Below, in pieces: positions 4,762 to 56,918 of a stretch of DNA of 64,000 nucleotides (its first letter is position 1; each line of letters opens with the position of its first letter). The notes beneath the pieces are model-generated. The model saw only the letters and a list, made by a program, of their open reading frames with translations. It had not been told where the DNA came from and did no database searches. Source of the DNA: Minisyncoccota bacterium (GTDB lineage Bacteria; Patescibacteriota; Minisyncoccia; Phycocordibacterales; JBAYGS01); assembly GCA_041666545.1 (NCBI GenBank), contig JBAYGS010000003.1, positions 41,086-105,085 on the forward strand. The letters are read 5' to 3'. Position numbers and translations under genes: made by a program.

Positions 4762-4850
4762 CCAATAACCAAGAGACAATAACCAAAATTAAGTTGGTTG
4801 GAATTTGTTTGATTATTGTTTCTTGGATTTTGTTATTTGATTACTATGTC
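4762..4850. repeat. family-B palindromic unit overlapping the comM start region
   Basis: caataaccaagagacaataaccaaaa ... ttgattattgtttcttggattttgttatttg. Confidence 0.65.
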
Positions 4851-6414
4851 TTTCTCAAGAGTTCTTTCCGCCCAGACAAATTATCTGGACGCGGCGATTA
4901 TCAAAGTTGAAACCGACTTATCAAAAGGCCTGAATTCTTTTTCGATTGTCGGCTTGCCGGACAAAGCGGTGGAAGAAGCCAGGGACCGCATTTCGGCCGC
5001 TATCAAGAACAGCGGTTTTCTTTCACCTAAACAGAAGAACCAGAGGACGGTCGTAGCGCTCGCACCGGCGGAACTCAAAAAGGAGGGTGCCAATTTTGAC
5101 CTGGCAATTGCTCTGGGTTATCTCTTAGCTACCAAACTAATTCGTTTTAACCCGGAAAAAAGACTGTTTCTTGGAGAATTATCCCTCGATGGCAAACTTC
5201 AACCGATTGCCGGCAGTTTAGCCCTAGTCTCGGAAGCCAAAAAACGCGGAATTGAGGAAGTTTATCTGCCAAAACAAAACGCCACGGAGGGTGCTTTAAT
5301 TTCTGACATAAAAATTTTTGGTGCCGACAATTTACTAGAAATTATTGCCCACCTAATCGAGAAAAGCCTCGACAAAACAGATGAGAGCCCGAGAATTTTG
5401 AAATTTGAGCTAGAAGTCACTCCACCAACCCAAGTTATTTATGAGGAGCCGGAGCGGGGTTTGGATTTATCAGATATCAAAGGTCAAGAAAGCGCCAAAA
5501 GAGGACTTTTGATTTCGGCCGCCGGTGGCCACAACTTGGCAATGTACGGCCCGCCCGGTACCGGCAAAACCATGCTGGCCCGAGCTTTTACCCATCTTTT
5601 GCCAAGCCTCTCTTTTGAAGAAGCTTTGGAGGTGACGGCCATCCATTCGGTTTCCGGAACACTTAAAGAAACCTTAGTGACTCGGCCACCACTTAGAAGT
5701 CCACATCACACCTCCTCGTATGTTGCGATTGTCGGCGGTGGTACAGTGCCGAAGCCAGGAGAAATTACTCTCGCCCACCGAGGAGTTTTGTTTTTGGACG
5801 AATTTCCGGAGTTTGAAAGACGAGTCATCGATGGTCTGCGTCAACCACTTGAAGACCGGGTGGTCAGTGTTTCCCGAATCAAAGGCACCGCCCAATTTCC
5901 GGCGCAGTTTATTTTAATCGCTGCAATGAATCCTTGTCCTTGCGGTAATTTTGGCATTTCTGGCAAACCCTGCATTTGTAGTGCCTCGAACATTGAAAGG
6001 TACAAGAGAAAAATTTCCGGACCAATTATCGATCGCATTGATTTGTGGGTTGAAGTCTCAAGCGTTGATCATGAATCACTAACCAGCCGAGAAAAAAGTG
6101 GCGCTGATACCAAGACCGTACGCAAGCAGATTGCTGAAGCCAGAGAAATTCAAGCTAAACGATTTAAGGATTCTAAGAGACCAATTAAAACCAATGGAGA
6201 AATGAGCGCCAAAGATGTAATTGAGCTGATCGACTTGGCCAAAGAAGTCAAAGATGAGTTTAACAAGTCGGCAAAAAAGTTGGACCTCTCGGCCCGGTCC
6301 TATCACCGAGTTTTAAAGTTGGCTCGCACCATTGCCGATTTAGAAAAAAGCGACGCGGTAGAGCGAGAACATATTTTCGAAGCTTTGCAGTACCGACCGA
6401 AACAGAGAATGTAA
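4816..6414 (+). CDS. comM: YifB/ComM family Mg-chelatase-like AAA+ ATPase
   Basis: 532 aa. N-terminal Lon-like ChlI domain (IVGLPDKAVEEARDRISAAIKNSGF). Walker A GPPGTGKTMLA, Walker B VLFLDEFPEF. C-terminal Mg-chelatase domain. Confidence 0.85.
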   Translation: MFLGFCYLITMSFSRVLSAQTNYLDAAIIKVETDLSKGLNSFSIVGLPDKAVEEARDRISAAIKNSGFLSPKQKNQRTVVALAPAELKKEGANFDLAIALGYLLATKLIRFNPEKRLFLGELSLDGKLQPIAGSLALVSEAKKRGIEEVYLPKQNATEGALISDIKIFGADNLLEIIAHLIEKSLDKTDESPRILKFELEVTPPTQVIYEEPERGLDLSDIKGQESAKRGLLISAAGGHNLAMYGPPGTGKTMLARAFTHLLPSLSFEEALEVTAIHSVSGTLKETLVTRPPLRSPHHTSSYVAIVGGGTVPKPGEITLAHRGVLFLDEFPEFERRVIDGLRQPLEDRVVSVSRIKGTAQFPAQFILIAAMNPCPCGNFGISGKPCICSASNIERYKRKISGPIIDRIDLWVEVSSVDHESLTSREKSGADTKTVRKQIAEAREIQAKRFKDSKRPIKTNGEMSAKDVIELIDLAKEVKDEFNKSAKKLDLSARSYHRVLKLARTIADLEKSDAVEREHIFEALQYRPKQRM

Positions 6415-6541
6415 TACCAATCTACCAATTTTATTCCAATCTACAAATATCCAGATAATTAAGAACTCACAAAAAACCGCTCACGCGGTTTTTGGATTTC
6501 TTTTTCTTCATACCATATACCTTATACTATATACCCAATAC

Positions 6542-7594
6542 CTATCTGAAAGGGTTTTGCGCGCCTCGGACTTCGAAGTGTAAGTGCGGTCCGGTTGAAC
6601 GACCGGTAGAACCGACATAGCCGATAATCTGGCCTTGCACGACATAAGAACCTTCGTAGGCAACATTGGTATCAAGGTGCCCATAAAGAGTTTGAGTACC
6701 GTTCGCGTGGGCAATAACGATATATTCGCCGTAGCCACCGTTCCAACCCGAGGAACGACTGATGATGACTTGGCCACTCGCCGCAGCCATGATTGGTGTA
6801 CCTCTTGAGGCACCGATATCAATCCCGTTATAGCCATGCAAGCCCTGGGTTTTTCTGCCACCAAGAACCGGCCAAATGTAATAGGTGCCGTAGTCTGGAC
6901 CACCTGCGCCACGGATTTTTGAGGTGCTACTGATTGTCGAAACACTGTAGCCGGCCATTTCACCATCGGGAATAATTATCGTATCACCAACTATCAAACT
7001 GGCACCTTGATCCAAACCGTTAAATTGTCTGATTTCACCCGCGTCGCCTTTGTACTTTTTGGCAATGCTCTGTAGAGTTTCACCTTTAACCACGGTGTGT
7101 TTGATACCGGAGATAGGTAGGATAATCAATTTTTGACCGACCTGAATCGGACCGGTAATGTCGTTGGCCCAAATAATCGTGTTGGCTGAAACACCAAACA
7201 TTTTAGCAATACCGGAAAGTGAATCGCCAGAATGAACAACGTAGACACTAATCTGACTTGATTTTGGATCTTCGATGTCCGCCAAGGTGCCGGCCGGGCC
7301 AGCTTCCGAAAGTAGGGCGGAGCTTGCCACGATTGTGATGTCACCACCCTTGGACAAGCTCGGGTTAGGGTTCCGGGTCGCCTGAAGCAGGGGCATATTT
7401 TGAGAATTAACTACCGACCCGTTAGTTCCGGCCTCAGCCTCATTATTGACCAAACTAGAAATAAAACTTAAAAGCCCCGCGTTTGCAGTTCGCGGAGCTA
7501 AAATCAAACTTAAAAATAGAACGGTAGCGGTAATAGTTGAGAAAACCAAAATCGGCTTCATTTTGGAAAAGCCTTGGTTGAGCCATATTTTCAT
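6542..7594 (-). CDS. LysM-domain M23 family metallopeptidase
   Basis: 350 aa. Signal/TM N-terminus, two LysM-like repeats (VHSGDSLSGIAKMFGVS; VVKGETLQSIAKKY), and a C-terminal M23 motif HGYNGIDIGA...GPHLHFEVR. Confidence 0.8.
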   Translation of the reverse strand: MKIWLNQGFSKMKPILVFSTITATVLFLSLILAPRTANAGLLSFISSLVNNEAEAGTNGSVVNSQNMPLLQATRNPNPSLSKGGDITIVASSALLSEAGPAGTLADIEDPKSSQISVYVVHSGDSLSGIAKMFGVSANTIIWANDITGPIQVGQKLIILPISGIKHTVVKGETLQSIAKKYKGDAGEIRQFNGLDQGASLIVGDTIIIPDGEMAGYSVSTISSTSKIRGAGGPDYGTYYIWPVLGGRKTQGLHGYNGIDIGASRGTPIMAAASGQVIISRSSGWNGGYGEYIVIAHANGTQTLYGHLDTNVAYEGSYVVQGQIIGYVGSTGRSTGPHLHFEVRGAQNPFR

Positions 7595-8534: not shown

Positions 8535-8561
8535 AAGCCGTGCGCTTCGCACGGCTTTTTA
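8535..8561 (+). terminator. rho-independent terminator
   Basis: agccgtgcg-cttc-gcacggct followed by ttttt. Confidence 0.6.
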
Positions 8562-8601
8562 AATACTTTCTACTTTCTATCTTATACCTTATACTTCCCC
8601 C

Positions 8602-10556: not shown

Positions 10557-11342
10557 ATGTACGCACGGAAATCACTGGGTCAACATTTCTTAAATTCGCC
10601 AGCCGCGATTAAGGCCATTATAGATGCTGGACAAATCAAAAAGGATGAAATTATTTTAGAAATCGGGCCCGGTCGAGGAGTCTTGACCGGAGCCTTACTT
10701 CAGAAGACCAGCCGAGTCATCGCAGTCGAAAAAGACAGCCGACTAATGCCGGTTTTGCAGCAAAAGTTCACTAAAGAAATAACTTCCGGTGAGCTGACCC
10801 TGGTGAGCGCCGACATTCTTAACTTTTCTCTGACTGACGACTCACCACTCACTACTCATTACAAACTAATCGCCAACATCCCTTATTATCTAACCGGTGC
10901 GATTTTCAGAAAGTTTTTGGAAACCGAAAATCAGCCGGAAAAAATGGTTTTGCTGGTGCAGAAAGAGGTCGCCGACCGGATTCTGGCCAGAGACAACAAG
11001 GAAAGCTTGCTCTCGCTTAGCGTCAAGGCTTTTGGCAAACCAAAATACATCAAAACTGTTAAGGCCGGTTCTTTTAACCCGCCACCGAAAGTCGACTCGG
11101 CAATTTTAGCCATTGATGAAATCTCGCGAGATTTTTTTAAAGACTGCAGTGAAAAGATTTTTTTCAAATTGATTCATCTTGGATTTGCCCATAAAAGAAA
11201 ACAGCTAGTCGCCAACTTGGCCGGCAGTTATAAGAGGGAGAAGATTACAAAAATTCTAGGGCAGTTGGAATTGTCCCCAACCATCCGAGCCGAGGACCTG
11301 AAAATCAAAGACTGGCAACAGCTGGCCAAACTAATCGCCTGA
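10557..11342 (+). CDS. rsmA: 16S rRNA (adenine1518/1519-N6)-dimethyltransferase
   Basis: 261 aa. N-terminal KSLGQHFLNSPAAIKAIIDA and the SAM-binding EIGPGRGVLT motif are typical of KsgA/RsmA. Confidence 0.9.
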   Translation: MYARKSLGQHFLNSPAAIKAIIDAGQIKKDEIILEIGPGRGVLTGALLQKTSRVIAVEKDSRLMPVLQQKFTKEITSGELTLVSADILNFSLTDDSPLTTHYKLIANIPYYLTGAIFRKFLETENQPEKMVLLVQKEVADRILARDNKESLLSLSVKAFGKPKYIKTVKAGSFNPPPKVDSAILAIDEISRDFFKDCSEKIFFKLIHLGFAHKRKQLVANLAGSYKREKITKILGQLELSPTIRAEDLKIKDWQQLAKLIA

Positions 11343-14770: not shown

Positions 14771-16507
14771 ATGACCAGACTCAAAAAATATCTGCCATAT
14801 ATCCTGATTGCCGTAATCCTTTGCGGTTTGGCCTTTTCACCTTTACTGATAAACACCGACCATGCTTTGGCGGCTACAGCCGGAGGTTCGTCTGACACCC
14901 CGGGTGGAGAGGGTGGACTAATCAGCACAGTGGCAAGCGGAGTCTTCGATAAATTTATGTCGTCGGTCACTTACATCATCCTCTGGCTAGTCGCGAGGAT
15001 TACTTGGGTCTCCGGCGCCCTGCTCGACCTTTCTGTCTACTACAGTTTGAACTTGGCCACCCTCTTGTCGAGAACTAATATTGTCACTATCGGCTGGACA
15101 ATTTTCCGCGACCTGGCCAATGTTTTCTTCATTTTCATCCTCCTTTATTACGGTATTAGAATGATTATCAGCTTGCCGGTTGATAAAAATTTAATCACGC
15201 GATTGATTGTGGTCGCCCTGCTTATCAACTTCAGCCTCTTTATCAGTCGGGTAGTGATTGACGCTTCAAATGTGGTGGCCTTACAATTTTATAAAGCCAT
15301 TCGGCCAAACTATACTACTGATATATCTAACCCAGATTTTTATTTGGACAACATCTCGAGCCAATTTATGTATGGCTTGCAACTTTCGAGCACCTACGAC
15401 CCGGGCTCTGGCGATAAAAGTGTCCTTCGAGATACAGCCGGTATTGCTTCGAAGAAAATTATCGTGATGATAATGGGCATAATCTTGCTCTTGGTGGCGG
15501 CTTTCGTCTTCGCGGCCGCCGCGATTCTCTTTACCGTGCGAACGGTAGTTTTGATACTCCTGATGATTCTTTCACCAATCGCTTTTATCGGCTCTCTCAT
15601 ACCCAAAACCCAAAGTTATTCTGAAGAATGGTGGACCCAACTTTTCAATCAGTCATTTTTTGCTCCGGCCTACTTGGTTATGACCTATGTCGTTTTGAAG
15701 GCTCTCGGAGGTATCCAAACGATGATTCCTGTACCGGCCGGTGCCTCTTTTACCGACGCTTTCGGAGGAATGGCTTTAACCAGTGTCTCGATAATTATGA
15801 ATTATGTAATTCTGATTATCCTGATGCTTTCTTCTTTGATTATTGCCAAGAGAATGGGCGCTCACGGGGCCGATATGGCACAGAAGGCGGCCGGCAAGAT
15901 GTCGTTTGGGATGGCGGGAGCCTTCGGCAGAACAACCTTCGGCAAAGTCGCTCAATCTTTTGGCGGCAGTAAATTTGCGCAGGGTATGGCTGCCAAATCT
16001 GGGGCCGTTGGCGCCGCCAGCAGGTTAGCACTCAAAGCCACGAATGCTGTCGGCCAGTCTAGCTTTGACCTCAGGGCAACAACGATGGCCGGTGGGGGTA
16101 TAAGCAGTCTTGTTGGCGATGTTGGAAAACCAAGAACAGCAAAAGAACTAGCAAAGGAGGCCGAGGAGGATCGTAAAGTTAAAGCTCAGGCACAGGTCAA
16201 AGCTGATAACGCCAGATTGGGCCAGTCAATTTCCAATCTCGCAACAACCAATCCTGCTGCTATCCCTGGAATTGTCAGTAATTTAGACAAGGACCAGTTT
16301 AAGTCTATTGATCCAAAGATTTTTGTTAACAACTCAACCGCTGCTCAGAGCCTGGAACCAGAACAGCTTAAAAATCTACAGAACAACCCCGACATTACTC
16401 AGGCTGACCGTCGCGCAATTAGACAACACATTTTGAACCTTGGTGCTGTAGGCACACCTACCCACACCTTCATGGATAGTGGCCCTGGTAGTGTTTTGTG
16501 GGCATAA
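14771..16507 (+). CDS. VirB6/TrbL-like polytopic membrane protein
   Basis: 578 aa. Signal peptide, 6 or more TM helices, and a hydrophilic Gly/Ala-rich C-terminal tail. This architecture is typical of VirB6/TrbL/ConG-type T4SS channel proteins. Assignment is by architecture and context only. Confidence 0.45.
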   Translation: MTRLKKYLPYILIAVILCGLAFSPLLINTDHALAATAGGSSDTPGGEGGLISTVASGVFDKFMSSVTYIILWLVARITWVSGALLDLSVYYSLNLATLLSRTNIVTIGWTIFRDLANVFFIFILLYYGIRMIISLPVDKNLITRLIVVALLINFSLFISRVVIDASNVVALQFYKAIRPNYTTDISNPDFYLDNISSQFMYGLQLSSTYDPGSGDKSVLRDTAGIASKKIIVMIMGIILLLVAAFVFAAAAILFTVRTVVLILLMILSPIAFIGSLIPKTQSYSEEWWTQLFNQSFFAPAYLVMTYVVLKALGGIQTMIPVPAGASFTDAFGGMALTSVSIIMNYVILIILMLSSLIIAKRMGAHGADMAQKAAGKMSFGMAGAFGRTTFGKVAQSFGGSKFAQGMAAKSGAVGAASRLALKATNAVGQSSFDLRATTMAGGGISSLVGDVGKPRTAKELAKEAEEDRKVKAQAQVKADNARLGQSISNLATTNPAAIPGIVSNLDKDQFKSIDPKIFVNNSTAAQSLEPEQLKNLQNNPDITQADRRAIRQHILNLGAVGTPTHTFMDSGPGSVLWA

Positions 16508-16517: not shown

Positions 16518-17276
16518 ATGAGATACGACTCAACAAAACTAAACGAAATTTATAAAACCCTGCCAAAAGATGTTCAGGAAGCGATGTTTTCGGTTGACTC
16601 CGCCAACGCTGTTCAAAAAATCGGCAAAGATAACGGCTTGATGATTGATAAAATGGGTACCCTTGGTCAAATGGTTGGTCTGGTAATGCTCGGTGTCATT
16701 AAATCCGTGAGTTTCGCCAAAGAAATCGAACACGAACTCGGAGTCAACTCAACAACCGCTCAAAAGATTGTCGCTCAAGTAAACGAGCAAATCTTTTTGC
16801 CAATCCGAGAATCGCTCCGGAAAATTCAAGAAAAAGAAATCAAGCCGGAATGGGACAGTGAATCAACCACCACCTTAAACCACGAAGATGTGTTGAAGGG
16901 GATTGAGGAACCCGGAGCAGTCACCGCCGATAAGCAAACCTTACTTAGCGAAAGCAAACCGGCGACCGCACCGGCGCCAGTCAACTTGCCGACCGGACCG
17001 ATGGGGAATGCACCGGCAGAAATCAACGCTTGGCCAAAATCACCTGAAATAACGAAAGCCCCACTCGAAACATCGGCAAAACTAAAAGTGGAAAGCATGG
17101 GAGTAAATATCCTTGAGGATAAAATGAGTAAAGTTGTCCATATCGCTAAAGAAACTAAAATCATTGAGCCAGAACCTTCAAAATTGCCGCCAGTTGCTCC
17201 GAAACCACCAACTCCACCCTCAATGCTGAAGAAGCAATATGGGACAGTTGATCCGTATAGAGAACCGGTAAGCTAG
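16518..17276 (+). CDS. hypothetical protein with a Pro-rich C-terminus
   Basis: Complete ORF inside the cluster. No recognisable motifs. Confidence 0.35.
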   Translation: MRYDSTKLNEIYKTLPKDVQEAMFSVDSANAVQKIGKDNGLMIDKMGTLGQMVGLVMLGVIKSVSFAKEIEHELGVNSTTAQKIVAQVNEQIFLPIRESLRKIQEKEIKPEWDSESTTTLNHEDVLKGIEEPGAVTADKQTLLSESKPATAPAPVNLPTGPMGNAPAEINAWPKSPEITKAPLETSAKLKVESMGVNILEDKMSKVVHIAKETKIIEPEPSKLPPVAPKPPTPPSMLKKQYGTVDPYREPVS

Positions 17277-17306
17277 TTTGTAGTGAGTAGTGGGTAGTGA
17301 GTAGTT
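17277..17306. repeat. family-A repeat (gtagtgagtagtgggtagtgagtag), left inverted copy flanking the four-helix-bundle gene
   Basis: Its exact reverse complement (aactactcactacccactactcactac) occurs at 17664-17690. Confidence 0.8.
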
Positions 17307-17309
17307 AAA

Positions 17310-17666
17310 ATGCAAGTCAAAACTTACAAAGATCTGATTGTTTGGCAAAAGTCTATGGAGCTGGCCACTTTGATTTATAATTTAACCAAAGAGTTCCCAA
17401 GAGACGAGGTCTATGGCTTGTCTTCACAAATCAAACGGGCCGTAATTGCAATCCCATCGAATATCGCCGAAGGACAACGCAGGAAGGGGACGAAAGAATT
17501 TATTCAATTTCTACACATCTCTTATGGGTCTGGAGCAGAACTGGAAACTCAGCTGGAATTAGCCAAAAGACTATCTTTCGGTAATTTGAATAGCTATACT
17601 GTCATAGAAAACCTTTTAAACGAAATCATGCGAATGTTAAATAAGTTAATTTACTCACTTCACTAA
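17310..17666 (+). CDS. four-helix-bundle protein (23S rRNA intervening-sequence protein family; Avd-like fold)
   Basis: 118 aa. DLIVWQKSMELATLIYNLTKEFPRDEVYGLSSQIKRAVIAIPSNIAEGQRRKGTKEFIQFLHISYGSGAELETQLELAKRL matches the TIGR02436 / PF05635 signature closely. Confidence 0.8.
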   Translation: MQVKTYKDLIVWQKSMELATLIYNLTKEFPRDEVYGLSSQIKRAVIAIPSNIAEGQRRKGTKEFIQFLHISYGSGAELETQLELAKRLSFGNLNSYTVIENLLNEIMRMLNKLIYSLH

Positions 17667-17698
17667 CTACTCACTACCCACTACTCACTACCAACTCC
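17652..17698. repeat. family-A repeat, right inverted copy (overlaps the stop of the four-helix-bundle gene)
   Basis: ctcacttcactaactactcactacccactactcactaccaactcc. Confidence 0.8.
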
Positions 17699-17699
17699 T

Positions 17700-18249: not shown

Positions 18250-18885
18250 ATGGCAAAAGCGAGCAGTTCAGAAACAACTCAAGGATTTGTTCCGATTAAG
18301 GAAGTCAGAGACGGCATCGCCGTTTTGAAAAATGGCGGTTTAAGAGCAATTCTTTTGGCTTCTTCTTTGAATTTTGCGTTGAAATCGGCCGATGAACAGC
18401 AAGCTATCATTTCTCAATTCCAAAACTTTTTGAATTCATTGGACTTCTCGGTACAAATTTTCATCCAATCACGCCGACTAGATATCAGGCCATATATTGC
18501 CCTACTCGAAAGCCGGTACAAAGAACAGCTTTCGGATTTAATGAAAATCCAGACCCGAGAATATATCGAGTTCATCAAGAATTTTACCGAAAACACCAGT
18601 ATTATGAGCAAAAGCTTTTTTGTAGTCATTCCTTACACCCCATCAGTTCTCGGTTCGGGTTCAAAGGGCCTCCTGGGCCGAAAAACCGAAAAGGTGACTC
18701 CGCAGACCTCGATGGAAAACTTCGAGGAAGACAGGAGCCAGCTCGACCAAAGAATTTCTGTCGTGGCCCAAGGGCTGACTCGATCCGGCATCAGAGTGGT
18801 ACAGCTTGGCACTGAGGAAGTTATCGAGCTTTTCTACAAAATTTTTAATCCGGGTGAGAGCGAAAAACCGATCCAAGTAAAATAG
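18250..18885 (+). CDS. hypothetical soluble protein, possibly a VirB4 N-terminal-domain-like fragment
   Basis: 211 aa. VPIKEVRDGIAVLKNGGLRAILLASSLNFALKSADEQQAIISQFQNFLNSLDFSVQIFIQSRR recalls the N-terminal region of Gram-positive VirB4/TrsE-type ATPases. Unverified. Confidence 0.3.
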   Translation: MAKASSSETTQGFVPIKEVRDGIAVLKNGGLRAILLASSLNFALKSADEQQAIISQFQNFLNSLDFSVQIFIQSRRLDIRPYIALLESRYKEQLSDLMKIQTREYIEFIKNFTENTSIMSKSFFVVIPYTPSVLGSGSKGLLGRKTEKVTPQTSMENFEEDRSQLDQRISVVAQGLTRSGIRVVQLGTEEVIELFYKIFNPGESEKPIQVK

Positions 18886-18902
18886 TGGCTATTTTACTTG
18901 GA

Positions 18903-18998
18903 ATCACCAAACACCAAGAAACAAATTCCAAGCAAACTCCAATAACAGAAACCTGAAAACTTTAGTTATTGTTTCTTGGTTATTGATTATCTACATCC
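18903..18998. repeat. family-B palindromic unit (ccaagaaacaa...ttattgtttcttggttattgattat)
   Basis: Reverse-complement arm and forward arm of the gttattgtttcttggttattg motif, upstream of the second four-helix-bundle gene. Confidence 0.7.
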
Positions 18999-19358
18999 AT
19001 GATTCATAAGTTTGATTTAGAAAAGCGAACGACAGATTTTGCAAAAGAAACCATCCTACTTTGCAGGAAATTACCTAAAGACCCGATAAACAACCGCCTA
19101 ATGGGACAAATTGTCGGTTCTTCCGGCTCTATTGGAGCTAATTACCGTGAAGCTAATGACTCACTGGGTAAGAGAGACTTTATCCACCGTTTGAAAATAT
19201 CCCGCAAGGAAATCAAGGAAACACTCCATTGGTTTGATTTGATTGAGACGGCCAATCCTAATTTCAAACCAGTGATACTGCCCCTCGCTAAGGAAGCGAC
19301 TGAACTGCGAAATATCTTTTCGGCGATTATTAAGAAATGCGAGGACAAGCAAGTATAG
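18999..19358 (+). CDS. four-helix-bundle protein (23S rRNA IVS protein family), second copy
   Basis: 119 aa. ...IVGSSGSIGANYREANDSLGKRDFIHRLKISRKEIKETLHWFDL matches the same family as 17310-17666 and is divergent from it. Confidence 0.75.
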   Translation: MIHKFDLEKRTTDFAKETILLCRKLPKDPINNRLMGQIVGSSGSIGANYREANDSLGKRDFIHRLKISRKEIKETLHWFDLIETANPNFKPVILPLAKEATELRNIFSAIIKKCEDKQV

Positions 19359-19373: not shown

Positions 19374-19424
19374 GGTTATTGATGTTTGTTTGGTTATTGT
19401 TTCTTGGTTATTGATTATTTACAC
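19374..19424. repeat. family-B repeat, direct copy downstream of the second four-helix-bundle gene
   Basis: ggttattgatgtttgtttggttattgtttcttggttattgattatttacac. Direct repeat of 18964-18990. Confidence 0.7.
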
Positions 19425-19426
19425 CT

Positions 19427-21235
19427 ATGAGTTTCTTAAGTAACTTATTTACCAAAAAGAAAACGGTCTCAGGTATTTCTCCAATTTTGCCACAGGAAAT
19501 TTATCAATCCGGAGTTTTGGAGTTGCAAGATATTATCGCACCTTCCGCCCTCAAAATCAGTCCCAAGGAGCTTAATTTGGGCGAAAAGATTGTCCGGTCA
19601 TTTTTTGTGATTTCTTACCCTCGTTTCCTTTCGGAATCTTGGTTTGCGCCAATCATCAACCTCGACAAAGTTTTTAATGTCTCGATTTTTGTGCACCCAA
19701 TCGACACCGTCAAAGTTCTGCGCCAATTCCAGAAGAAAGTCGCCGAGGTGCAGAGCCAGATCAGCGCCAGGGAATCAAAAGGCTTGGTGAGAGACCCGAT
19801 GCTTGATACTGCTTATCACGATTTGGAACAACTACGCGATAGCCTGCAACAAGCCCAGGAAAAACTTTTTGATGTCGGCCTCTATATCACCATTTACGGC
19901 GATAACGACAATGAGTTGGACAAAATTGAATCAGAAATTAAATCAATTCTCGAGTCTAAACTTGTGTATGTAAAACCCGCCCTTTTCCAACAAGAGCAGG
20001 GCTATATCAGTTCGCTACCGATTGCCGACGACCAACTCCAGGTTCACTCAAAGCTCAATTCCACCCCTCTTTCCAGTCTTTTCCCGTTCGTGTCTTTCGA
20101 CCTAACTTCAGATAAAGGCATCCTTTACGGCGTTAATCGCCACAATTCCAGTCTGGTGCTTTTCGACCGCTTCTCGCTTGAAAACTACAATTCGATTACC
20201 TTCGCCAAATCTGGCGCCGGAAAATCGTACGCGACTAAACTGGAAATTTTGCGAACTCTGATGTTTGACGCCGATGTCATCGTAATTGACCCGGAAAAAG
20301 AGTACGAATACATGGCCGAGGCGACCGGTGGCAAATACTTCAATATTTCCTTAACTTCCGAACATCACATTAACCCCTTCGATTTACCGACGCCGAGCGA
20401 AGACGAGTCTCCGGCCGATGTTTTGCGTTCCAACATCATCAACCTGGTCGGCTTGTTTAGAATCATGATGGGTGGGCTTACCCCGGAAGAAGACGCGATT
20501 ATTGACCGGGCCATTACCGAAACCTACGCCCTGAAAGACATCTCGCCCGATTCCAACTTTGCCAATATTGAGCCACCGCTACTTTCAGATTTCGAATTGG
20601 TCTTGGCCGGCATGGAGGGCGGGGAATCGTTGGTACAAAGAATCACCAAATACACTAAAGGCACCTGGTCCGGTTTCCTCAATCGGCCGAGTAATGTGGA
20701 AATCGACAAAAAATTTGTTGTTTTCTCTTTGCGAGACATGGAGGAGGAGCTCAAACCAGTCGCGATGTACATCGTCACTCATTATATTTGGAATGCCATC
20801 AGAAAACACCTGAAGAAACGCCTACTGGTCATTGACGAGGCTTGGTGGATGATGAAATCCGATGATACCGCCTCGTTTCTTTTGAGCCTCGCCAAACGCG
20901 GACGAAAATATTATTTAGGCCTGGCCACAATCACCCAAGATGTTGATGACTTTTTGCGTTCGCCTTACGGTTTACCGATTGTCACCAACTCCTCAATTCA
21001 AATTTTACTCAAACAATCACCGGCCGTTATAGACCGACTGAAGGAAGTCTTTAACCTAACAGATGAGGAAAAATATTTACTTCTGGAATCTGATGTCGGG
21101 GAAGGGATTTTCTTCGTCGGCCTTAAACATGTTGCCATCAAAACTATCGCTTCATACACCGAGGACCAGATTATCACTTCGGACCCATCTCAAATTCTAG
21201 CTATCAAAAAGGCTCGCGCCGAGCTTAATTCTTAA
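19427..21235 (+). CDS. VirB4/TrsE-like conjugation-type ATPase (AAA-like, CagE/TrbE/VirB family)
   Basis: 602 aa. N-domain IVRSFFVISYPRFLSESWFAPIIN. Walker A FAKSGAGKSY. Walker B LLVIDEAWWMM (the DEAW motif typical of VirB4). C-terminal ATPase region. Confidence 0.75.
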   Translation: MSFLSNLFTKKKTVSGISPILPQEIYQSGVLELQDIIAPSALKISPKELNLGEKIVRSFFVISYPRFLSESWFAPIINLDKVFNVSIFVHPIDTVKVLRQFQKKVAEVQSQISARESKGLVRDPMLDTAYHDLEQLRDSLQQAQEKLFDVGLYITIYGDNDNELDKIESEIKSILESKLVYVKPALFQQEQGYISSLPIADDQLQVHSKLNSTPLSSLFPFVSFDLTSDKGILYGVNRHNSSLVLFDRFSLENYNSITFAKSGAGKSYATKLEILRTLMFDADVIVIDPEKEYEYMAEATGGKYFNISLTSEHHINPFDLPTPSEDESPADVLRSNIINLVGLFRIMMGGLTPEEDAIIDRAITETYALKDISPDSNFANIEPPLLSDFELVLAGMEGGESLVQRITKYTKGTWSGFLNRPSNVEIDKKFVVFSLRDMEEELKPVAMYIVTHYIWNAIRKHLKKRLLVIDEAWWMMKSDDTASFLLSLAKRGRKYYLGLATITQDVDDFLRSPYGLPIVTNSSIQILLKQSPAVIDRLKEVFNLTDEEKYLLLESDVGEGIFFVGLKHVAIKTIASYTEDQIITSDPSQILAIKKARAELNS

Positions 21236-27085: not shown

Positions 27086-28486
27086 TTGGATAGATATATA
27101 CTTTACCCACTAAAATCCTTTATGCCTCCAATTATGTTCGACAACAAGTCACTCTGGGATCGAGTTTTGATAGAAGTGGAACTTTCGGTTTCAAAAGCCA
27201 ACTTCACAACTTGGTTTAAGGACACTTTTATCGACAAAGTAGACGAGGGTGCGGCCTATTTAGGGGTTCCGAACGCTTTTGTTAAGGACTGGCTCTCAAA
27301 AAAGTATCACCAATTGATTTTAAAGTCTTTAAGAGGTCTTGATGAGCGCATCCGCTCTTTGGAGTATGTAGTGGCCAAGAGTGACGGCCGGAGAGGGCAA
27401 GCTGACGCGCCACAGGCCTTGCCAAGAATGGCCCCCGGCAACGAATTACCCCTTCAAGACTTCTACATCAACAAAGACGACAACTTGAACCCTCGTTACA
27501 CCTTTTCAACTTTCGTGGTCGGTCCGTTCAACGAATTCGCTCACGCCGCCTCCCAGGCAATTTTAAAGAAGCCTTTGGCTTACAACCCGCTTTTTATTTA
27601 TGGTTCGACTGGCCACGGCAAAACTCACCTAATTCAGGCCATCGGCAACCACATTAAGACCACTTTGGAAGGGAAGAAGATTTTTTATCTGACCTCAGAG
27701 AGGTTTGCGGTAGATTTTGTTAACTCCCTAAACACCGGAAAAGCCAATGTTTTCAAGGAAAAATACCGAAAATATGATGTTTTAATTATGGATGATGTCC
27801 AATTCATCTCCAACAAAGACAAAACCCAGGAGGAGCTCTTCCATTTGTTCAACACTCTTTACGATAACAATAAGCAGATTATTTTCTCGGCTGACAAACA
27901 CCCGAACTTGATGCTCGACCTGCAAGATCGCCTGCGGTCCAGATTTAACGCCGGCATGATTGTTGAAATTTACCCGCCCGACTTTGAATCGCGACTCCAA
28001 ATTTTGAAAACCAAATCCGGTTTGATGAATTTTTCCCTCGCCCCAGACATTATTGAGTTTTTAGCCACTACAGTGGAAGGCAACATTCGGGAATTAGAAG
28101 GGGTTTTGAACTTGATTATCTGCCAAACCCAATTAAGAGGGAAGGATCTTTCAATCTTAGAGATTAAAAACTTAATTAAAAACAACAGCCGGCCCAAAAA
28201 ATCTGTTTCAGTTAAAGATGTAATTAAGACGATTGCCGACTTTTATAATGTGGAGGAGGGTAGCATCTACGAGAAGACCCGTAGAAAGGAGGTGGTTAAG
28301 CCACGCCAGGTGATTATGTATTTTTTGAGAGAAGAGCTAAACATTTCTTACCCTTCGATTGGTGAAAAAATGGGTGGTCGCGACCACACCACAGTTATCC
28401 ACTCATGCGAAAAGATTAAGAACGAATTACGCGACAACAACATTTTGGCCCAGGAAATCAACCAGTTAAAAGCGATGATAGGGTGA
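27086..28486 (+). CDS. dnaA: chromosomal replication initiator DnaA
   Basis: 466 aa. AAA+ NPLFIYGSTGHGKTHLIQAIGN. DnaA signature helix-turn-helix domain IV at the C-terminus (VKPRQVIMYFLREELNISYPSIGEKMGGRDHTTVIHS). Confidence 0.93.
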   Translation: MDRYILYPLKSFMPPIMFDNKSLWDRVLIEVELSVSKANFTTWFKDTFIDKVDEGAAYLGVPNAFVKDWLSKKYHQLILKSLRGLDERIRSLEYVVAKSDGRRGQADAPQALPRMAPGNELPLQDFYINKDDNLNPRYTFSTFVVGPFNEFAHAASQAILKKPLAYNPLFIYGSTGHGKTHLIQAIGNHIKTTLEGKKIFYLTSERFAVDFVNSLNTGKANVFKEKYRKYDVLIMDDVQFISNKDKTQEELFHLFNTLYDNNKQIIFSADKHPNLMLDLQDRLRSRFNAGMIVEIYPPDFESRLQILKTKSGLMNFSLAPDIIEFLATTVEGNIRELEGVLNLIICQTQLRGKDLSILEIKNLIKNNSRPKKSVSVKDVIKTIADFYNVEEGSIYEKTRRKEVVKPRQVIMYFLREELNISYPSIGEKMGGRDHTTVIHSCEKIKNELRDNNILAQEINQLKAMIG

Positions 28487-28709: not shown

Positions 28710-29810
28710 ATGAAAGCAGACTGTTCAAAAGATTTGTTGGCGGAAGTTTTAAACAAACTGGAGAAGATCGCAGGCAAGCACCAAACTCTGCCGGTTCTTT
28801 CTGGAATTTTAATTGAAGCGGAAAAAGGCAGTCTGGTTTTAAAAGCCACTAACCTTGATGTCGCAGCCGAGTTTGTTTTGCCGGCCAAAGTTGAGGAGGC
28901 CGGCCGGACAGTTGTACCGGCCGCCGCTCTGGCCTCGTTTGCCACCAATTTGTCTGGGGGCAAAAACATCCGTTTAGAACTTAGCCAGAACAACCTAAAA
29001 CTGGTGGCACCAAACAACACCGCCCTGATTAAGACTCTGCCTGTTGAGGAGTTCCCTTCTTTGCCGGAAGTTGTTAGCGGTCAAATTTTTACTTTGATGG
29101 CCAAGGATTTGGTTAAAGGACTAGTTTCAGTTGCCTACAGCTCGGCCGGGCACAGTTTGAAGCCGGAATTGGCCAGCGTTTCTTTGCGGGGTGACGGTGA
29201 GTCTCTGGTTTTTGCCGCTACCGACTCCTTCCGTCTGGCTGAAAAGAAAATCAAAATCAAAAAAGACTTAGACTTTAACCCTATTTTGGTCCCAGTTAAA
29301 AACGCCAACGAGATTGTCAGACTCCTCGAGAAAATTAATGGGGAAGTTGAAATTAAAATCGACAAAAATCAAATGGCGGTTTCAGCCGAAGGTTTAACTA
29401 TCATCACCCGCCTTGTCGACGGTTTGTTTCCGGATTATCAACAAATCATTCCTAAAGAAAAACAAACCGAAGCGACAGTTTTAAAACAAGACTTATTAAA
29501 CGCACTTAAACTCTCAAATATTTTTTCCGGAAAGTTCAACCAAATTAATTTCTCAATCAAACCAACAAGTAAAACTTTTAAAATTAGCTCAAAGACTGCG
29601 GAGTTGGGGGAGAACGAGCAGAATCTCGACGCCGCTCTTTCTGGAGAAGAGGTTGATGTAAATTTTAACTACCGCTACATCTCTGACTCCTTCCAGTCGA
29701 TTGACTCCGATAGCATAAATCTCTCTTTTAGCGGTCAAAATCGAGCCATGGTGATCACTGCAGTGGGCGATCGCTCCTTTCTCTACTTGGTGATGCCAAT
29801 GAACAAATAA
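28710..29810 (+). CDS. dnaN: DNA polymerase III beta sliding clamp
   Basis: 366 aa, three-domain beta-clamp-like, directly downstream of dnaA. Confidence 0.9.
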   Translation: MKADCSKDLLAEVLNKLEKIAGKHQTLPVLSGILIEAEKGSLVLKATNLDVAAEFVLPAKVEEAGRTVVPAAALASFATNLSGGKNIRLELSQNNLKLVAPNNTALIKTLPVEEFPSLPEVVSGQIFTLMAKDLVKGLVSVAYSSAGHSLKPELASVSLRGDGESLVFAATDSFRLAEKKIKIKKDLDFNPILVPVKNANEIVRLLEKINGEVEIKIDKNQMAVSAEGLTIITRLVDGLFPDYQQIIPKEKQTEATVLKQDLLNALKLSNIFSGKFNQINFSIKPTSKTFKISSKTAELGENEQNLDAALSGEEVDVNFNYRYISDSFQSIDSDSINLSFSGQNRAMVITAVGDRSFLYLVMPMNK

Positions 29811-34767: not shown

Positions 34768-35298
34768 TTACTCAGCGTTGGTAAAAATCTCTTGGACCTC
34801 ATCATTTTCCTCTAAAGCCTCAATCAAAGCCTCAAGCTTGGCGCCATCTTCCTCGGAAATCGGGGCCATGGTTTTCGGCATCCAGCCTTCGTGGGTTTTC
34901 TCGAAGGCCCAACTGGCGCTCCCGGGCGCGGCGAGGGCAGAACCGTGCTCCGAAAGAATAAATTTGATTTCCTGGGCGGCCTTATTGCGATTGTCGGTCA
35001 AAGCGTCAATGATGAGAGCTACTCCGCCTGGGCCATAGGCCTCATAGACAATTACCTCCATATTTTGCGAGCCGGCCTCGGTAGCCTTTTTCACGGCACG
35101 ATCAATGTTATCACTCGGCATGTTAGCGGCGCGAGCTTTTTCAATGATGCTCTTTAAGCCAGGCGAAGAAGTGTTGCCGTTAGCTTTTTTAGCTTCCAAA
35201 GTGATTAAACGGGAATATTTGGAAAAGATTTTGCTTTTCTTGGCATCCGAAACTGCCTTCTTATTTTTTACTTTTGACCATTTGTTGTGACCGGACAT
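34768..35298 (-). CDS. yebC: YebC/PmpR family DNA-binding regulator (short form)
   Basis: 176 aa. MSGHNKWSKVKNKKAVSDAKKSKIFSKYSRLITLEAKK is the canonical YebC N-terminus. Adjacent to ruvC as in many bacteria. Confidence 0.8.
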   Translation of the reverse strand: MSGHNKWSKVKNKKAVSDAKKSKIFSKYSRLITLEAKKANGNTSSPGLKSIIEKARAANMPSDNIDRAVKKATEAGSQNMEVIVYEAYGPGGVALIIDALTDNRNKAAQEIKFILSEHGSALAAPGSASWAFEKTHEGWMPKTMAPISEEDGAKLEALIEALEENDEVQEIFTNAE

Positions 35299-35508
35299 GG
35301 GAAGTGAGTAGTTAGTAGTGGGTAGTGAGTAGTAAAAGAAAGACCACTATACTTTATACCTAATATTTACCCCAGGCTACTTGACTAGTCGATTGGTTTA
35401 AGATATTACAGGAGTAGACAGAATTACAGCTCGAGCTGTTTTCGACTGTTCTTAACAAATAATCCTAAAGCATTTTAAAATGCTCCGGTAAATCAACGAG
35501 GAACCTGT

Positions 35509-37877: not shown

Positions 37878-38284
37878 ATAAATTGTTTTATGCTAGACTA
37901 CCACTGTTATTTGAAAGAGGCGAGACGCGGTCATTATGGGCTCCAGAAATAGGGGTCATGAGATTTTAAGCTGGGCAATCCAGAATTTAAATCTCTAAGT
38001 AATGGATTTCACGGTCTTTAAATTCTTTTAGAGGACGTCTTGGTTTCGTATCTTCGGATATTAGGCTGATACTATCCTTGTAAAAGCGGTTTAGCTTTTG
38101 GCGTCATGCTAAAAGTATTACTTAGAGATTTAACATCTGGATTTGGGGCCCCGGTTAGAACATTTCGTTTTAACCGGGGCCTTTCGTTTTCTATCTCTCA
38201 TTATTCACGGCTTTAGCCCTCTGGCAACTGGGGATAGCGACTGCAACACCAAAAACTTTTTCTTGCAAGGAACTGTGGACAGTC

Positions 38285-39955
38285 TTACATTTCTGCTTCC
38301 AAATCAATCACTCGTTTGACCTCCTCAAGTGAAGTCAATCCGGCCAAAATTTTCATAATTCCGTCTTGTCGCATGTCGGGAATATTTTGCGCCACCGAAG
38401 CTTTTTTAATCTCTCGCTCGCTTGGGCTGGCTTCGACCACTTTTTCGATCGCCTGATCGGTAATGATGGCCTCATAAACTCCGGCGCGGCCCTTGTAGCC
38501 GGTATTGTTGCAGACAGCACAGCCGACCGGCACAAACATTTTCTCGATTGGTGGGAGCGGATCCTTAAGCTCACTTAGGATTTTCTTGAACAATTCTTGG
38601 TCGGCCGGTTCGATCGGCGCCTCCTTCTTGCAAGCCTGACAAAGTTTACGAACTAAACGTTGGGCCATCGCTAAACTCAAAGCTGAAGTGATAATTTTTG
38701 GGTTGACCTTAAGATCAATCAGTCGGGTGAAGGTCCCGGCGGCATTATTGGTGTGCAAAGTTGAGAAGACCAAGTGGCCGGTGAGTGCCGAGTTGATGGC
38801 CACACTCGCGGTTTCGCTGTCTCGGATTTCACCAACCATGATGACATCCGGATCTTGTCGCAAAGCGCTCCTTAGGCCAGAAAGGAAAGTGTAGCCCTTT
38901 TCGCTGTCGGTTTGAGTTTGCACGATTCCCGGTAAATGGTATTCGATCGGGTCTTCAATGGTGATTATCTTAATGCTTGGATCGTGGAGTTTCCGAAGCA
39001 GGGCATAGAGCGTGGTGGTTTTACCGGAACCGGTTGGGCCGGTGGTGAGCAACATGCCGTTGGGCTTGCTAATGGTTTTATTGACCAATTCCAAAAGTTT
39101 TTCACTCATCCCGAGTTGTTCGAGTGGCACCGAGATTGATTTCGGATTCAAAACGCGCATCACGATTGATTCAGCGTAGGCACCGGGCAGAACCGAAGTT
39201 CGAATTTCGATATCGGCGTCGCTCACCCCTACACTAAAACGACCGTCCTGGGCTTCTGAACCGACATTGAGCTTTAGGCCGGAGATTAATTTAATACGCG
39301 AAAGCAGTAAGCGGTAAGTTTGGCGGTCAAATTTAATTACATCGGTTAGAACACCGTCCAAACGAAAGCGAATTCGGACATACTCTTCTTCCGGTTCGAT
39401 GTGGATGTCGGAAGCGTTGATAGCCAAAGCTCCGGCCAAAATTACCTCTAAAATTTTTGAAATTTTAAAACCCTTGGTGCCCTTTAACAGTTCATAGATT
39501 TTTGAAGTGATGTCGTTTAAATTTTTAACATCTTTCATAACCGAAGCGACTTCCTCGGCGGAAATATCAAGAGCGCCGGCTTTGGATTCGCTGGCGTAAG
39601 AAAGAGTGGCATAAAGCGACCAGGCTTTTTCCAGGCTTGTGGCTGAAACCATGAAAAGGGTTAGTGCATAGCCGGCTGTTTCGAGTTTTTTCAAAACCAA
39701 CAGAGTTTTGTCGAATTGAGGGGAGAGGACCGCTACCTTTAATTTTTTTCCGGAAATGTCAAAGACTGCCATTTTAGCTTCTCGTGCTTCCGCCTCCGGC
39801 ACAAGTCGGAGGGCGTCGCTGTTAACCGGGGCGGTCAAAAGATTACCGTAGGCGATGCCATACTTACCTGACAGCAATTCGGCGGAATCTTCCGCCTCTT
39901 TCCTTAAAAGAGTTTTGATTCGTTCCTCCTGTTTGTCGTCATTAAAATCAATCAT
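38285..39955 (-). CDS. pilB: type IV pilus assembly / type II secretion ATPase (PilB/GspE family)
   Basis: 556 aa. Walker A LLTTGPTGSGKTTTLYA, Asp box, His box, and the C-terminal tetracysteine CQACKK...CAVCNNTGYKGRAGVYE typical of GspE/PilB. Confidence 0.9.
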   Translation of the reverse strand: MIDFNDDKQEERIKTLLRKEAEDSAELLSGKYGIAYGNLLTAPVNSDALRLVPEAEAREAKMAVFDISGKKLKVAVLSPQFDKTLLVLKKLETAGYALTLFMVSATSLEKAWSLYATLSYASESKAGALDISAEEVASVMKDVKNLNDITSKIYELLKGTKGFKISKILEVILAGALAINASDIHIEPEEEYVRIRFRLDGVLTDVIKFDRQTYRLLLSRIKLISGLKLNVGSEAQDGRFSVGVSDADIEIRTSVLPGAYAESIVMRVLNPKSISVPLEQLGMSEKLLELVNKTISKPNGMLLTTGPTGSGKTTTLYALLRKLHDPSIKIITIEDPIEYHLPGIVQTQTDSEKGYTFLSGLRSALRQDPDVIMVGEIRDSETASVAINSALTGHLVFSTLHTNNAAGTFTRLIDLKVNPKIITSALSLAMAQRLVRKLCQACKKEAPIEPADQELFKKILSELKDPLPPIEKMFVPVGCAVCNNTGYKGRAGVYEAIITDQAIEKVVEASPSEREIKKASVAQNIPDMRQDGIMKILAGLTSLEEVKRVIDLEAEM

Positions 39956-48608: not shown

Positions 48609-48658
48609 CACTATTTTTTATACTATATACCTAATACTTTATACTATATACTTTACCT

Positions 48659-51578: not shown

Positions 51579-51655
51579 TAACCAAGGTAAGTAGACGCTA
51601 CCGAGTATTGTTAATCGGAATTTGTTCGGTTATTGTTTCTTGGTCATTGGTGATT
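51546..51655. repeat. family-B palindromic unit (3x caataaccaagaaa, then ttattgtttcttggtcattg)
   Basis: Long imperfect inverted repeat in the divergent intergenic region between the DoxX and SpoU genes. Confidence 0.7.
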
Positions 51656-53159: not shown

Positions 53160-53212
53160 CGAAATAGTATTAGGTATATAGTATTAAGTATATAGTATGG
53201 GGAAAGAAAAAT

Positions 53213-56757: not shown

Positions 56758-56918
56758 GAAGTTAAGTATATAGTATAAGGTATATAGTATAAAGTATCAG
56801 ATAATTCCACAGGAATGGATAAATTTGCATTTTTTGAAAGTCTCTGTTAGTATTGCCCTTGTTCGTTTTTCTGATGTCTTTAACTACAAACTACTCACTA
56901 CCAACTACTAACTAACTT

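Follow-up and report, generated by a model that had tools for sequence, protein, structure and literature searches.

Probable intervening-sequence-type cassettes outside ribosomal RNA: four-helix-bundle genes between inverted heptamer arrays in a type IV secretion operon of a Minisyncoccota bacterium

We have analysed a stretch of 64,000 nucleotides from a Minisyncoccota bacterium (contig JBAYGS010000003.1; the whole stretch is called the window hereafter), in which an operon resembling those of type IV secretion systems (T4SS) carries two small genes of the four-helix-bundle (4HB) family, named here HB1 and HB2, each bracketed by inverted repeats built of heptamers. The reading that we favour, and hold to be probable, is that of a gene cassette of the intervening sequence (IVS) type located outside rRNA, that is, a promoter-less S23p/4HB gene lying between inverted arrays of about five heptamers, in this case within a T4SS operon. 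Both cassettes display their anatomy in the window; related species carry empty sites, and the same operon spacers have been occupied repeatedly; the arms follow the clade of the protein that they enclose; one cassette has decayed to a hairpin with a remnant of the open reading frame (ORF); and the same design is present in an rRNA IVS of Azospirillum lipoferum and in plasmid copies of cyanobacteria and Bacteroidota. The order of the operon is VirB6/TrbL, p252, the HB1 cassette, PrgI/VirB3, TrsD, the HB2 cassette, and VirB4.

HB1 is the ORF at 17310-17666 on the forward strand, encoding a basic protein of 118 residues (pI 9.2). It matches PF05635 (23S_rRNA_IVP) with an E-value of 6.2e-39 and 132.9 bits against a cut-off of 33.8, residues 7-112 covering model positions 1-106, and TIGR02436 with 124.4 bits against a cut-off of 24. 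The match is thus full length and above the curated cut-offs, and the first-pass annotation, which had recognized a TIGR02436-type four-helix-bundle protein in this ORF, was right. The nearest solved structures are 2GSC (E 5.8e-23) and 2RLD, with five chains each. The gene is flanked by two arms:

17274-17308, forward strand: left arm of the HB1 cassette, five TAG-N4 heptamers (TAGTTTG, TAGTGAG, TAGTGGG, TAGTGAG, TAGTTAA)
17664-17696, forward strand: right arm of the HB1 cassette, (N4-CTA) repeated, reverse complement of the left arm

A repeat finder places the inverted pair at 17275-17307 and 17664-17696 (33 nt, 97% complementary). Within it lies a perfect 27-mer at 17280-17306, with its reverse complement at 17665-17691, for which 100 shuffles gave no match even with up to 3 mismatches allowed. 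This perfect 27-nt repeat had already been noticed, with coordinates 1-3 nt off, together with the overlap between its downstream copy and the stop codon of HB1, and both observations hold: the right arm overlaps the TAA at 17664-17666. The arms are tandem heptamers (period 7 and 3.7-4.4 copies in Tandem Repeats Finder), and the left one contains sense-strand stop codons in all three frames. The placement of the cassette is exact. The first TAG of the left array (17274-17276) is the stop codon of p252, and from there the stretch 17274-17699 runs through TTTG, the TAG units and a single A to the ATG of HB1; at the other end the gene finishes with CAC TAA, followed by CTACTCACTACCCACTACTCACTACCAACT, CCT, and the ATG of prgI, so that the right arm stops 3 nt short of this ATG and doubles as the prgI 5' leader. 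In RNA folds, the closing stem formed by the arms is predicted in both the minimum free energy (MFE) and the centroid structures (z = -4.0; 0 of 100 shuffles fold as well). Regarding the traits by which an IVS is recognized, the cassette has inverted repeats forming an enclosing stem (in the predicted fold, 33 nt, 97%) and tandem heptamers adjoining an S23p ORF (the five TAG-N4 units at 17274-17308), but it is not inside an rRNA gene: it lies between protein-coding genes, and Rfam finds only five tRNAs in the window.

The second cassette is found in the same operon, between trsD and virB4, 1.3 kb downstream of HB1:

18902-18946, forward strand: left arm of the HB2 cassette, C/A-rich heptamers of the AAACACC / AAGAAAC type
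18961-18998, forward strand: inner copy of the right-arm/leader sequence, immediately preceding the HB2 ATG and sharing 90% identity with the leader of virB4
18999-19358, forward strand: HB2, 4HB gene, 119 aa (PF05635 E 1.5e-13, 51.3 bits; TIGR02436 71.3 bits)
19375-19426, forward strand: right arm of the HB2 cassette, also the leader of virB4 (ATG at 19427)

HB2 is about 20-23% identical to HB1, and its inverted repeat (18902-18946 / 19375-19419, 45 nt, 78%) is composed of heptamers unlike those of HB1. Its closing stem is likewise predicted in the MFE and centroid RNA folds (z = -3.3; 0 of 100 shuffles fold as well), and the inner copy at 18961-18998 is able to pair locally with 18903-18924. 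The 42 nt up to and including the HB2 start codon (18961-19002) are 90% identical to the virB4 leader (19389-19430), and a third copy of this leader (4804-4859) precedes a Mg-chelatase-like gene at 4846, the similarity reaching its first codons (MSF...). An insertion of HB2 splitting virB4 had been suggested by the ORF at 18250-18885, which matches the VirB4 N-terminus; it was rejected, because this TrsD-like ORF is a separate, conserved TrsD-family gene in all relatives (PMC12102498), and HB2 therefore does not split virB4.

Bracketing by inverted repeats is a property of the 4HB genes rather than of genes at large. Using as inverted-repeat (IR) score the best local complementarity between the 90-nt flanks of each gene, we obtained a median of 30.5 for 4HB genes (n = 16) versus 14 for 849 other genes (Mann-Whitney p = 2e-9); the 95th and 99th percentiles of these controls are 20 and 30, and the few control genes with high scores are T4SS genes adjoining arrays. 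Metagenomes were also scanned with an alignment of 35 family members, which yielded 80 loci with proteins 53-68% identical to HB1. Among them the IR score is at least 24 in 64 of the 79 scorable genes and at least 30 in 44 of the 79. The left arm typically consists of (N4-TAG) units repeated on the sense strand, and the right arm of their complement. Each arm matches its own partner better than the arms of other loci (31 vs 17, p = 7e-22). The concern that the repeat might be abundant enough for flanking to be expected anyway is answered by this comparison: arrays are common, yet inverted pairing is specific to the cassettes. The neighbouring genes are co-oriented on both sides in 52 of 67 metagenomic cassettes, with median gaps of 59 and 50 nt, and no rRNA turned up in the 80 loci when they were searched with six conserved rRNA probe sequences.

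The metagenomic arms define the repeated unit with some precision. In 73 non-redundant loci, TAG occurs upstream of the gene at 5.2 per 70 nt against a background of 0.585 (about 9-fold), and consecutive TAGs are spaced by 7 nt in 162 of 308 intervals and by 8 nt in 65. The commonest chain length, on both sides, is 5 units (27/73 loci), followed by 4 (20/73), within a range of 2 to 10. Where two TAGs are 14 nt apart, the unit between them is again TAG in 196 of 210 cases, with TAA or TGA in its place in 3, and the spacer positions match the preceding unit in 39-71%. Paired arms are mismatched at 2-5% of TAG positions, compared with 15-42% for the positions of the spacer. TAG also terminates the upstream gene in 41 of 59 loci (background 32%), and in 32 loci it is in register with the array; this count calls for caution, since any ORF that reads into an array of this kind is bound to terminate in it. 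TAG-type arms carry stops in every frame in 68 of the 73 loci; as a general explanation of the heptamer design, however, the provision of stops in all frames was rejected, given that other clades use stop-free units (GGGAACA, GGGAAAA, GGCAGAG) and that TAA/TGA substitutions are near absent. The proteins of the 4HB family are basic (median pI 9.3).

A comparison with relatives lacking the insertion had been proposed along with the first-pass annotation. One genome per species was scanned with VirB4, yielding 80 loci (L001-L080) with VirB4 80-88% identical and the same gene order, and 4HB genes were located in them by profile search. Most of these syntenic species have no 4HB gene in the T4SS operon and thus provide compact empty sites: in most cassette-free relatives the gap between trsD and virB4 is about 10-30 nt, and the spacer between p252 and prgI is short and holds no cassette. 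The C-terminus of p252 (DPYREPxx*) has the same end position in relatives without the cassette. Fifteen 4HB ORFs and one frameshifted copy (L075) were found in the 80 loci, all of them on the operon strand and non-orthologous. They sit between p252 and prgI (L032, L051, L066, L067, L079, and a decayed copy in L021), between prgI and trsD (L023, L027, L028, L037), between trsD and virB4 (L023, L031, L049, L067, L075), or further upstream (L071, L027); they cluster in the stretch from VirB6 to VirB4, with none found in about 6 kb downstream of virB4. HB1-like genes of the relatives fill the spacer between trsD and virB4, which in the window holds the unrelated HB2, so that the spacers were colonised independently. 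For HB1 itself there is no close orthologue, the best non-self match among more than 8000 hits being 66% identical.

At the site of HB1, the 4HB genes of L032, L066, L067 and L079 and the decayed copy of L021 all have arrays of their own, so that, L051 excepted, no 4HB gene is found here without repeats. In L079, the closest relative at this site, the left arm lies about 100 nt further out. In the case of L021 (about 640-815), both TAGCTTn arms of the decayed cassette are intact and enclose a small internal palindrome, while what remains of the gene is a 36-codon ORF in which an internal deletion has brought the N-terminus of a 4HB protein next to its C-terminus. This remnant shows the origin of ORF-less hairpins such as that of L071 between p252 and prgI.

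The arms follow the protein. When 17 4HB proteins from T4SS loci were clustered, a small sample, the protein clusters coincided with classes of arm motif. The TAG-N4 cluster comprises HB1, L031, L032, L066, L071 and L079, with one misfit member, L067b, which has GAAG-type arms; the AACCAAC cluster comprises L027a, L028 and L037, which are 58-74% identical to one another; an A-rich AAAAG cluster is formed by L023a and L049, and a TAAGAG-type cluster by L023b, L027b and L067a; HB2 clusters alone. In the genomes with two cassettes (L023, L027, L067, and the window), each cassette has different arms, and therefore the arms belong to the cassette and not to the host locus. The first-pass suggestion that the gene moves, or is controlled, as a unit with these repeats is thus supported by the empty sites, the repeated insertion, and arms that travel with the gene and follow its clade.

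The same design is found far from this lineage. A tblastn search against plasmids returned 38 records, mostly cyanobacterial, of which 16 loci were inspected; in 11 of the 16, inverted arrays of 7-8-nt units directly flank the 4HB gene, and in 3 an obvious array is present downstream only, two of these having a transposase gene upstream. Of the other two, one is a Pseudanabaena copy with direct arrays and one is a 23S rRNA IVS (L177). The unit motifs of the inverted arrays are as follows:

TAGGGAG: Nostoc edaphicum
AAAAGGG: Geminocystis
TAGGGTG: Calothrix
GGGAAAA: Nostoc ATCC 53789
GGCAGAG: Stanieria
GGAGATA: Picosynechococcus
GGGGAGA-type: Leptolyngbya
AAGGTTC: Riemerella
AGGTGAC: Anabaena 90, arms further from the ORF
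GGGAACA and GCAGAGGA: Nostoc C052

The neighbours of the plasmid copies are typically co-oriented operon partners (cas6 and cas4 twice, cas10 and cmr3, a type IV coupling protein gene); an exception is the Nostoc edaphicum copy, which has nrdB and nrdA as neighbours and is on the strand opposite to theirs. The locus on Azospirillum lipoferum AZO_p2 (L177) is a 23S rRNA gene (Rfam LSU, 500.8 bits) and hence a genuine IVS, its 4HB ORF being placed between inverted GGACGGA/TGACAGA heptamers (GGACAGA-type). In the IVS of Coxiella burnetii, three or four GACAGAT repeats, variable in number among strains, immediately precede the S23p ATG, and the first of them marks the 5' RNase III cut (PMC4990558). 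The window cassettes therefore share the detailed anatomy of canonical IVSs, as the matching heptamer/4HB design of L177 and Coxiella indicates, but in mRNA operons. With the rRNA IVSs that carry an S23p ORF (Leptospira, Coxiella burnetii, Brucella, L177) they have in common a PF05635 protein, an inverted-repeat closing stem, heptamer arms, sporadic spread and decay of the ORF; they differ in their location in a protein-coding operon, in the TAG-N4 core and in the exact stop-to-start placement, and excision would apply to them by analogy.

On this basis, the life of such a cassette in an operon can be outlined. The cassette has no evident promoter and would be transcribed by read-through of the operon, its arms being predicted to pair around the ORF as a stem of about 33 bp. 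As in rRNA IVSs, this stem would be cleaved by RNase III, a cut that would free the 4HB mRNA without damage to the cistrons on either side; the leader left to prgI would be short, poor in G and unstructured. More speculatively, the arrays are candidate binding sites of the 4HB protein itself, one unit per subunit in the manner of HutP and TRAP, and such binding may serve autoregulation or a step of mobility. The arrays are proposed as the protein's own sites because TAG is invariant, the 7-nt phase is kept in every clade, the modal number of units is five, and the protein is basic and expected to be a pentameric toroid. HutP reads UAG triplets with 4-nt spacers and TRAP reads (G/U)AG triplets with 2-3 nt between them, in both cases one triplet per subunit. 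What the cassettes share with these regulators is the invariant TAG core at 7-nt spacing, the modal 5 units and the position beside the gene of a predicted pentameric toroid; on the other hand, HutP and TRAP have no sequence or fold relation to 4HB proteins, and other 4HB clades use non-TAG heptamers. As for the toroid, the crystal structure of the Xanthomonas S23p protein is homopentameric (Lin 2006, cited in PMC4990558).

Several observations weigh against the IVS-type reading. L051 has a 4HB gene at the HB1 site without arms, the sole exception there, and in L165 (Pseudanabaena galeata plasmid pPg_01, between cas6 and cas4) the arrays are direct instead of inverted, about 15 perfect AAAGCTA repeats before the 4HB gene being followed by AAAGCCA repeats after it in the same orientation. 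The mobility of the cassette is suggested by comparison between species: an exact look-up of the PrgI protein returned only the same strain, and no filled/empty polymorphism was seen at strain level. Solo arrays are more numerous than cassettes in the window, and so arrays might exist in their own right, for instance serving downstream genes as leaders. The correspondence between five units and a pentamer counts so far as numerology, with chain lengths going from 2 to 10. No rnc gene was seen in the window, and neither transposase nor integrase was found in the operon and the 30 window ORFs scanned; no target-site duplication can be made out, since the arms run directly against a stop codon on one side and a start codon on the other. 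Finally, the mismatches between arms (median arm identity 86% over 27 nt) are mostly transversions (139 of 219), and wobble pairs are little enriched (47 vs 33). Selection for a perfect RNA stem is therefore undemonstrated and action at the DNA level is possible; selection at the RNA level was sought in wobble-compatible mismatches, which gave no clear signal.

This last point also speaks for a DNA-level element with terminal inverted repeats, which we hold to be a serious alternative of rather low probability. According to it, the arrays would be ends recognized by a transposase or recombinase acting in trans, or by the 4HB protein as an accessory, the RNA stem would be irrelevant, and the co-orientation with the operon would reflect the need for expression by read-through. 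Besides the lack of an RNA-pairing wobble signature, it accounts for arrays that are symmetric on both strands, with TAG pointing inward at both ends as in the subterminal repeats of transposons, for arms that travel with the protein clade, and for the existence of decayed derivatives that look like MITEs, miniature transposable elements with inverted repeats; an older proposal regards IVSs themselves as remnants of transposition (cited in PMC4990558). Against it stand the absence of a transposase in or near the cassettes and of any target-site duplication seen, the cleavage in the stem by RNase III that is experimentally established for canonical rRNA IVSs (PMC4990558), and a strong sense bias with exact stop-to-start placement, which fits an RNA-level lifestyle at least as well. 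MITEs and repetitive extragenic palindromes (REP, and their REPIN doublets) are short intergenic inverted-repeat elements with hairpin derivatives, comparable to L021, L071 and possibly the pair at 51538-51673 of the window, but the arms described here are 7-nt periodic, no transposase or REP-associated tyrosine transposase was found, the cargo is always a 4HB gene, and the orientation in operons is strictly sense.

It seems improbable that the 4HB genes are domesticated regulators of the T4SS operon, acting with their hairpins as attenuators or processing sites that set the stoichiometry of the cistrons. Both 4HB genes of the 64-kb window are indeed in this operon, and the cassettes of the relatives cluster between VirB6 and VirB4 and are missing from the ~6 kb downstream of virB4; however, the operon has a 4HB gene in only about 15 of 80 species, in varying spacers and with non-orthologous proteins, the identical design is found between cas, nrd and rRNA genes in other phyla, the 80 metagenomic loci were retrieved by the 4HB gene alone, regardless of T4SS, and a survey of Patescibacteria T4SS loci does not mention 4HB genes as components (PMC12102498). 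That a 4HB gene came by chance to lie between two oppositely oriented leader arrays of a common kind is hardly credible: arrays do precede about 17 of the 68 window genes, and the right arm doubles as the prgI leader, but the shuffles give an expectation of 0 for the 27-mer pair, no array of the window other than the HB1 left arm stands TAG-on-sense ahead of a gene start, both window 4HB genes are bracketed, and across 80 + 80 loci bracketing is specific to 4HB genes, the IR-score and arm-swap controls rejecting chance.

The remaining alternative makes HB1 a remnant or satellite of a diversity-generating retroelement (DGR), an Avd accessory serving a reverse transcriptase encoded elsewhere, and can be dismissed as very unlikely: the shared fold, the weak matches to Avd models and the sense insertion in transcribed regions, compatible with an RNA intermediate, are offset by Avd scores far below the cut-offs (PF22296 bAvd, 27.6 bits vs 40; NF033474, the NCBIfam DivGenRetAVD model, 34.3 vs 80), by the much better fit of the 23S_rRNA_IVP model (132.9 bits), and by searches that found no reverse transcriptase in 30 window ORFs and no direct repeat of the template/variable type in the 64 kb. 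The first-pass annotation had likewise noted an Avd-like fold with no DGR in sight, and the reading of the locus as a DGR was rejected on these grounds. Apart from heptamer arrays and a tRNA pair, the direct repeats of at least 40 nt in the window amount to a single weak match in two copies (53505/56381; 44 nt, 73%). The family link between 4HB proteins and Avd has been noted (PMC10053308). HB1 resembles Avd in its four-helix-bundle fold and basic character, and differs from it in scoring below the Avd cut-offs and in having neither a reverse transcriptase nor a template/variable repeat that we could find. The bAvd protein forms a pentameric barrel. We know of no description of Avd genes with flanking heptamer arrays.

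Copies of the HB1 arm family without a gene are present elsewhere in the window. Three had been reported by the first-pass annotation; their existence stands, and the count rises to four, one of them weaker:

10840-10862, forward strand: weak short copy of the HB1 heptamer family, inside the ksgA-like gene 10557-11342
35301-35334, reverse strand: solo array of the HB1 arm family, CTA-on-sense, with a TAG-unit chain at 35309-35332, 10 nt upstream of the gene 34768-35298 (reverse strand)
45393-45426, forward strand: copy of the HB1 arm family in polA, in frame and stop-free, encoding the linker ETTHYSLPTTHLP
56881-56915, forward strand: solo array of the HB1 arm family with 5 units, CTA-on-sense, 4 nt upstream of the ATG at 56919

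These copies either precede a start codon by 4-10 nt or are read in frame within polA and the ksgA-like gene, in the stop-free CTA-on-sense orientation wherever orientation was checked. The window has 6 strict TAG arrays with 4 or more units, where 0.08 would be expected, and among them only the one before HB1 is TAG-on-sense. More generally, heptamer arrays are found just upstream of the ATG in about 17 of 68 window genes. The HB2 arm family also has a pair with no gene between its arms:

51538-51673, strand not assigned: two inverted arms of the HB2 family, one at 51538-51583 and one at 51628-51673, separated by 44 nt

This pair lies between two divergent genes, with one arm as the leader of each. 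Its first reading as an empty site was dropped on that account; it may be a decayed cassette.

In-frame heptamer arrays were noticed in several housekeeping genes, namely polA (45393-45426 and 44762-44796), the ksgA-like gene (10840-10862) and the gene at 53213-54190 on the reverse strand (53831-53865). Those at 45393-45426 and 53831-53865 have the stop-free CTA-on-sense orientation, and the products of the arrays are short linkers of low complexity, ETTHYSLPTTHLP in DNA polymerase I being an example. A third heptamer/14-mer family (ATACTATATACC...) occurs at 6510-6542, 8554-8594, 48617-48655, 53164-53198 and 56764-56797; four of these copies immediately precede a start codon, and one lies between convergent genes. 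Some of them have TATACT about 6-7 nt before the ATG and may double as -10 boxes.

The occurrence of S23p ORFs, inverted repeats and RNase III excision in rRNA IVSs is known, as is the wide distribution of "four helix bundle" genes, including some within cas loci. Heptamers in the Coxiella IVS have also been described (PMC4990558). In the open-access literature, however, we found no report of non-rRNA 4HB genes lying systematically inside IVS-like inverted heptamer arrays, none of 4HB cassettes coming and going between operon genes or of a repeat core that follows the protein clade, and no link between 4HB genes and heptamers beyond the single Coxiella description. An excess of intergenic heptanucleotides, of unknown function, has been reported for the short tandemly repeated repetitive (STRR) sequences of cyanobacteria and for the GGGAATC / GGGGAYT units of Xanthomonas and Nostoc, Xanthomonas having 70-75 convergent inverted pairs of variable length (PMC4692102). 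Those repeats resemble the present arms as tandem 7-nt intergenic units, often in convergent pairs, and the cyanobacterial 4HB genes examined here are flanked by such arrays; still, the published STRR units differ in sequence and the present host belongs to the candidate phyla radiation (CPR), so that the resemblance is one of kind and not of membership. The same work draws no link to 4HB genes (the terms 'S23' and 'helix bundle' are absent from PMC4692102), whereas in the cassettes described here the array pairs bracket a 4HB gene and their motif follows the protein clade.

The function of S23p/4HB proteins and the origin of rRNA IVSs have been open since the early 1990s, and the heptamer excess is likewise unexplained. 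The present locus, together with roughly 175 comparators, ties these three matters together: the 4HB gene is nearly always inside inverted 7-nt arrays, the conserved core of the units follows the protein clade, and the cassettes are not limited to rRNA. Taken as a single case, the locus appears to be an ordinary member of an apparently large class, and it is the class that constitutes the interesting result; our data suggest a widespread, largely undescribed mobile cassette. Going further, and only as a tentative proposal that might well fail, 4HB/S23p proteins and heptamer arrays could form one two-part system spread across bacteria, in which each pentameric clade reads its own 7-nt unit, about five per arm, and which is mobile in highly transcribed operons, including those of rRNA. 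If that were true, rRNA IVSs would be simply the best-known special case of such cassettes, and the intergenic heptamer excess (STRR, the Xanthomonas GGGAATC pairs, the solo arrays of the window) would be the footprint of 4HB cassettes. In practical terms, the vague annotation "four helix bundle protein" becomes testable, through pentamer-heptamer binding, the RNase III stem in mRNA operons, and mobility. The cassettes also split CPR operons, and it is easy to take them for parts of CRISPR-Cas or T4SS loci.

Regarding the setting, the host belongs to the Paceibacteria (Parcubacteria, CPR), and the VirB4 of the window is 87% identical to that of a Candidatus Taylorbacteria metagenome-assembled genome. 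The operon genes around the cassettes are:

14771-16507: VirB6/TrbL, start of the operon
16518-17276, forward strand: p252, conserved T4SS-locus protein, with syntenic homologues in most of L001-L080
17700-18137, forward strand: prgI/virB3-like (PF12666 E 2.1e-10)
18250-18885: TrsD, matching the VirB4 N-terminus
19427-21235: VirB4, downstream of the HB2 cassette

A second assembly of the same strain (L168, JGI contig Ga0376277_0106593) breaks off within the right arm of the HB1 cassette, 21 nt upstream of prgI, and these repeats may therefore break short-read assemblies. In most cassette-free relatives prgI has a TATAAT box 6-8 nt upstream of its ATG. Many window genes have the same box at this distance and no Shine-Dalgarno sequence (3173, 4401, 11760 on the reverse strand, 11834, 22080, 54190 on the reverse strand, 60973), and since TATAAT stands 6-8 nt before the ATG with the Shine-Dalgarno sequence absent, this suggests that leaderless mRNAs are common in the lineage. 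The genes dnaA (27122-28486) and dnaN (28710-29810) are about 6 kb from the T4SS operon, a position that agrees with the often origin-proximal location of Patescibacteria T4SS loci (PMC12102498).

Two further repeats of the window are of other kinds. An inverted repeat at 37977-38003 / 38117-38143 (27 nt, 93%, 113-nt spacer) is not of the heptamer type and lies downstream of a pilB-like ATPase gene (38285-39955, reverse strand), between it and ruvB. Two tRNA-Arg genes, at 57354-57428 and 57603-57677, are 81% identical, have the anticodons CCG and GCG, and are separated by a perfect 20-bp hairpin (57481-57536).

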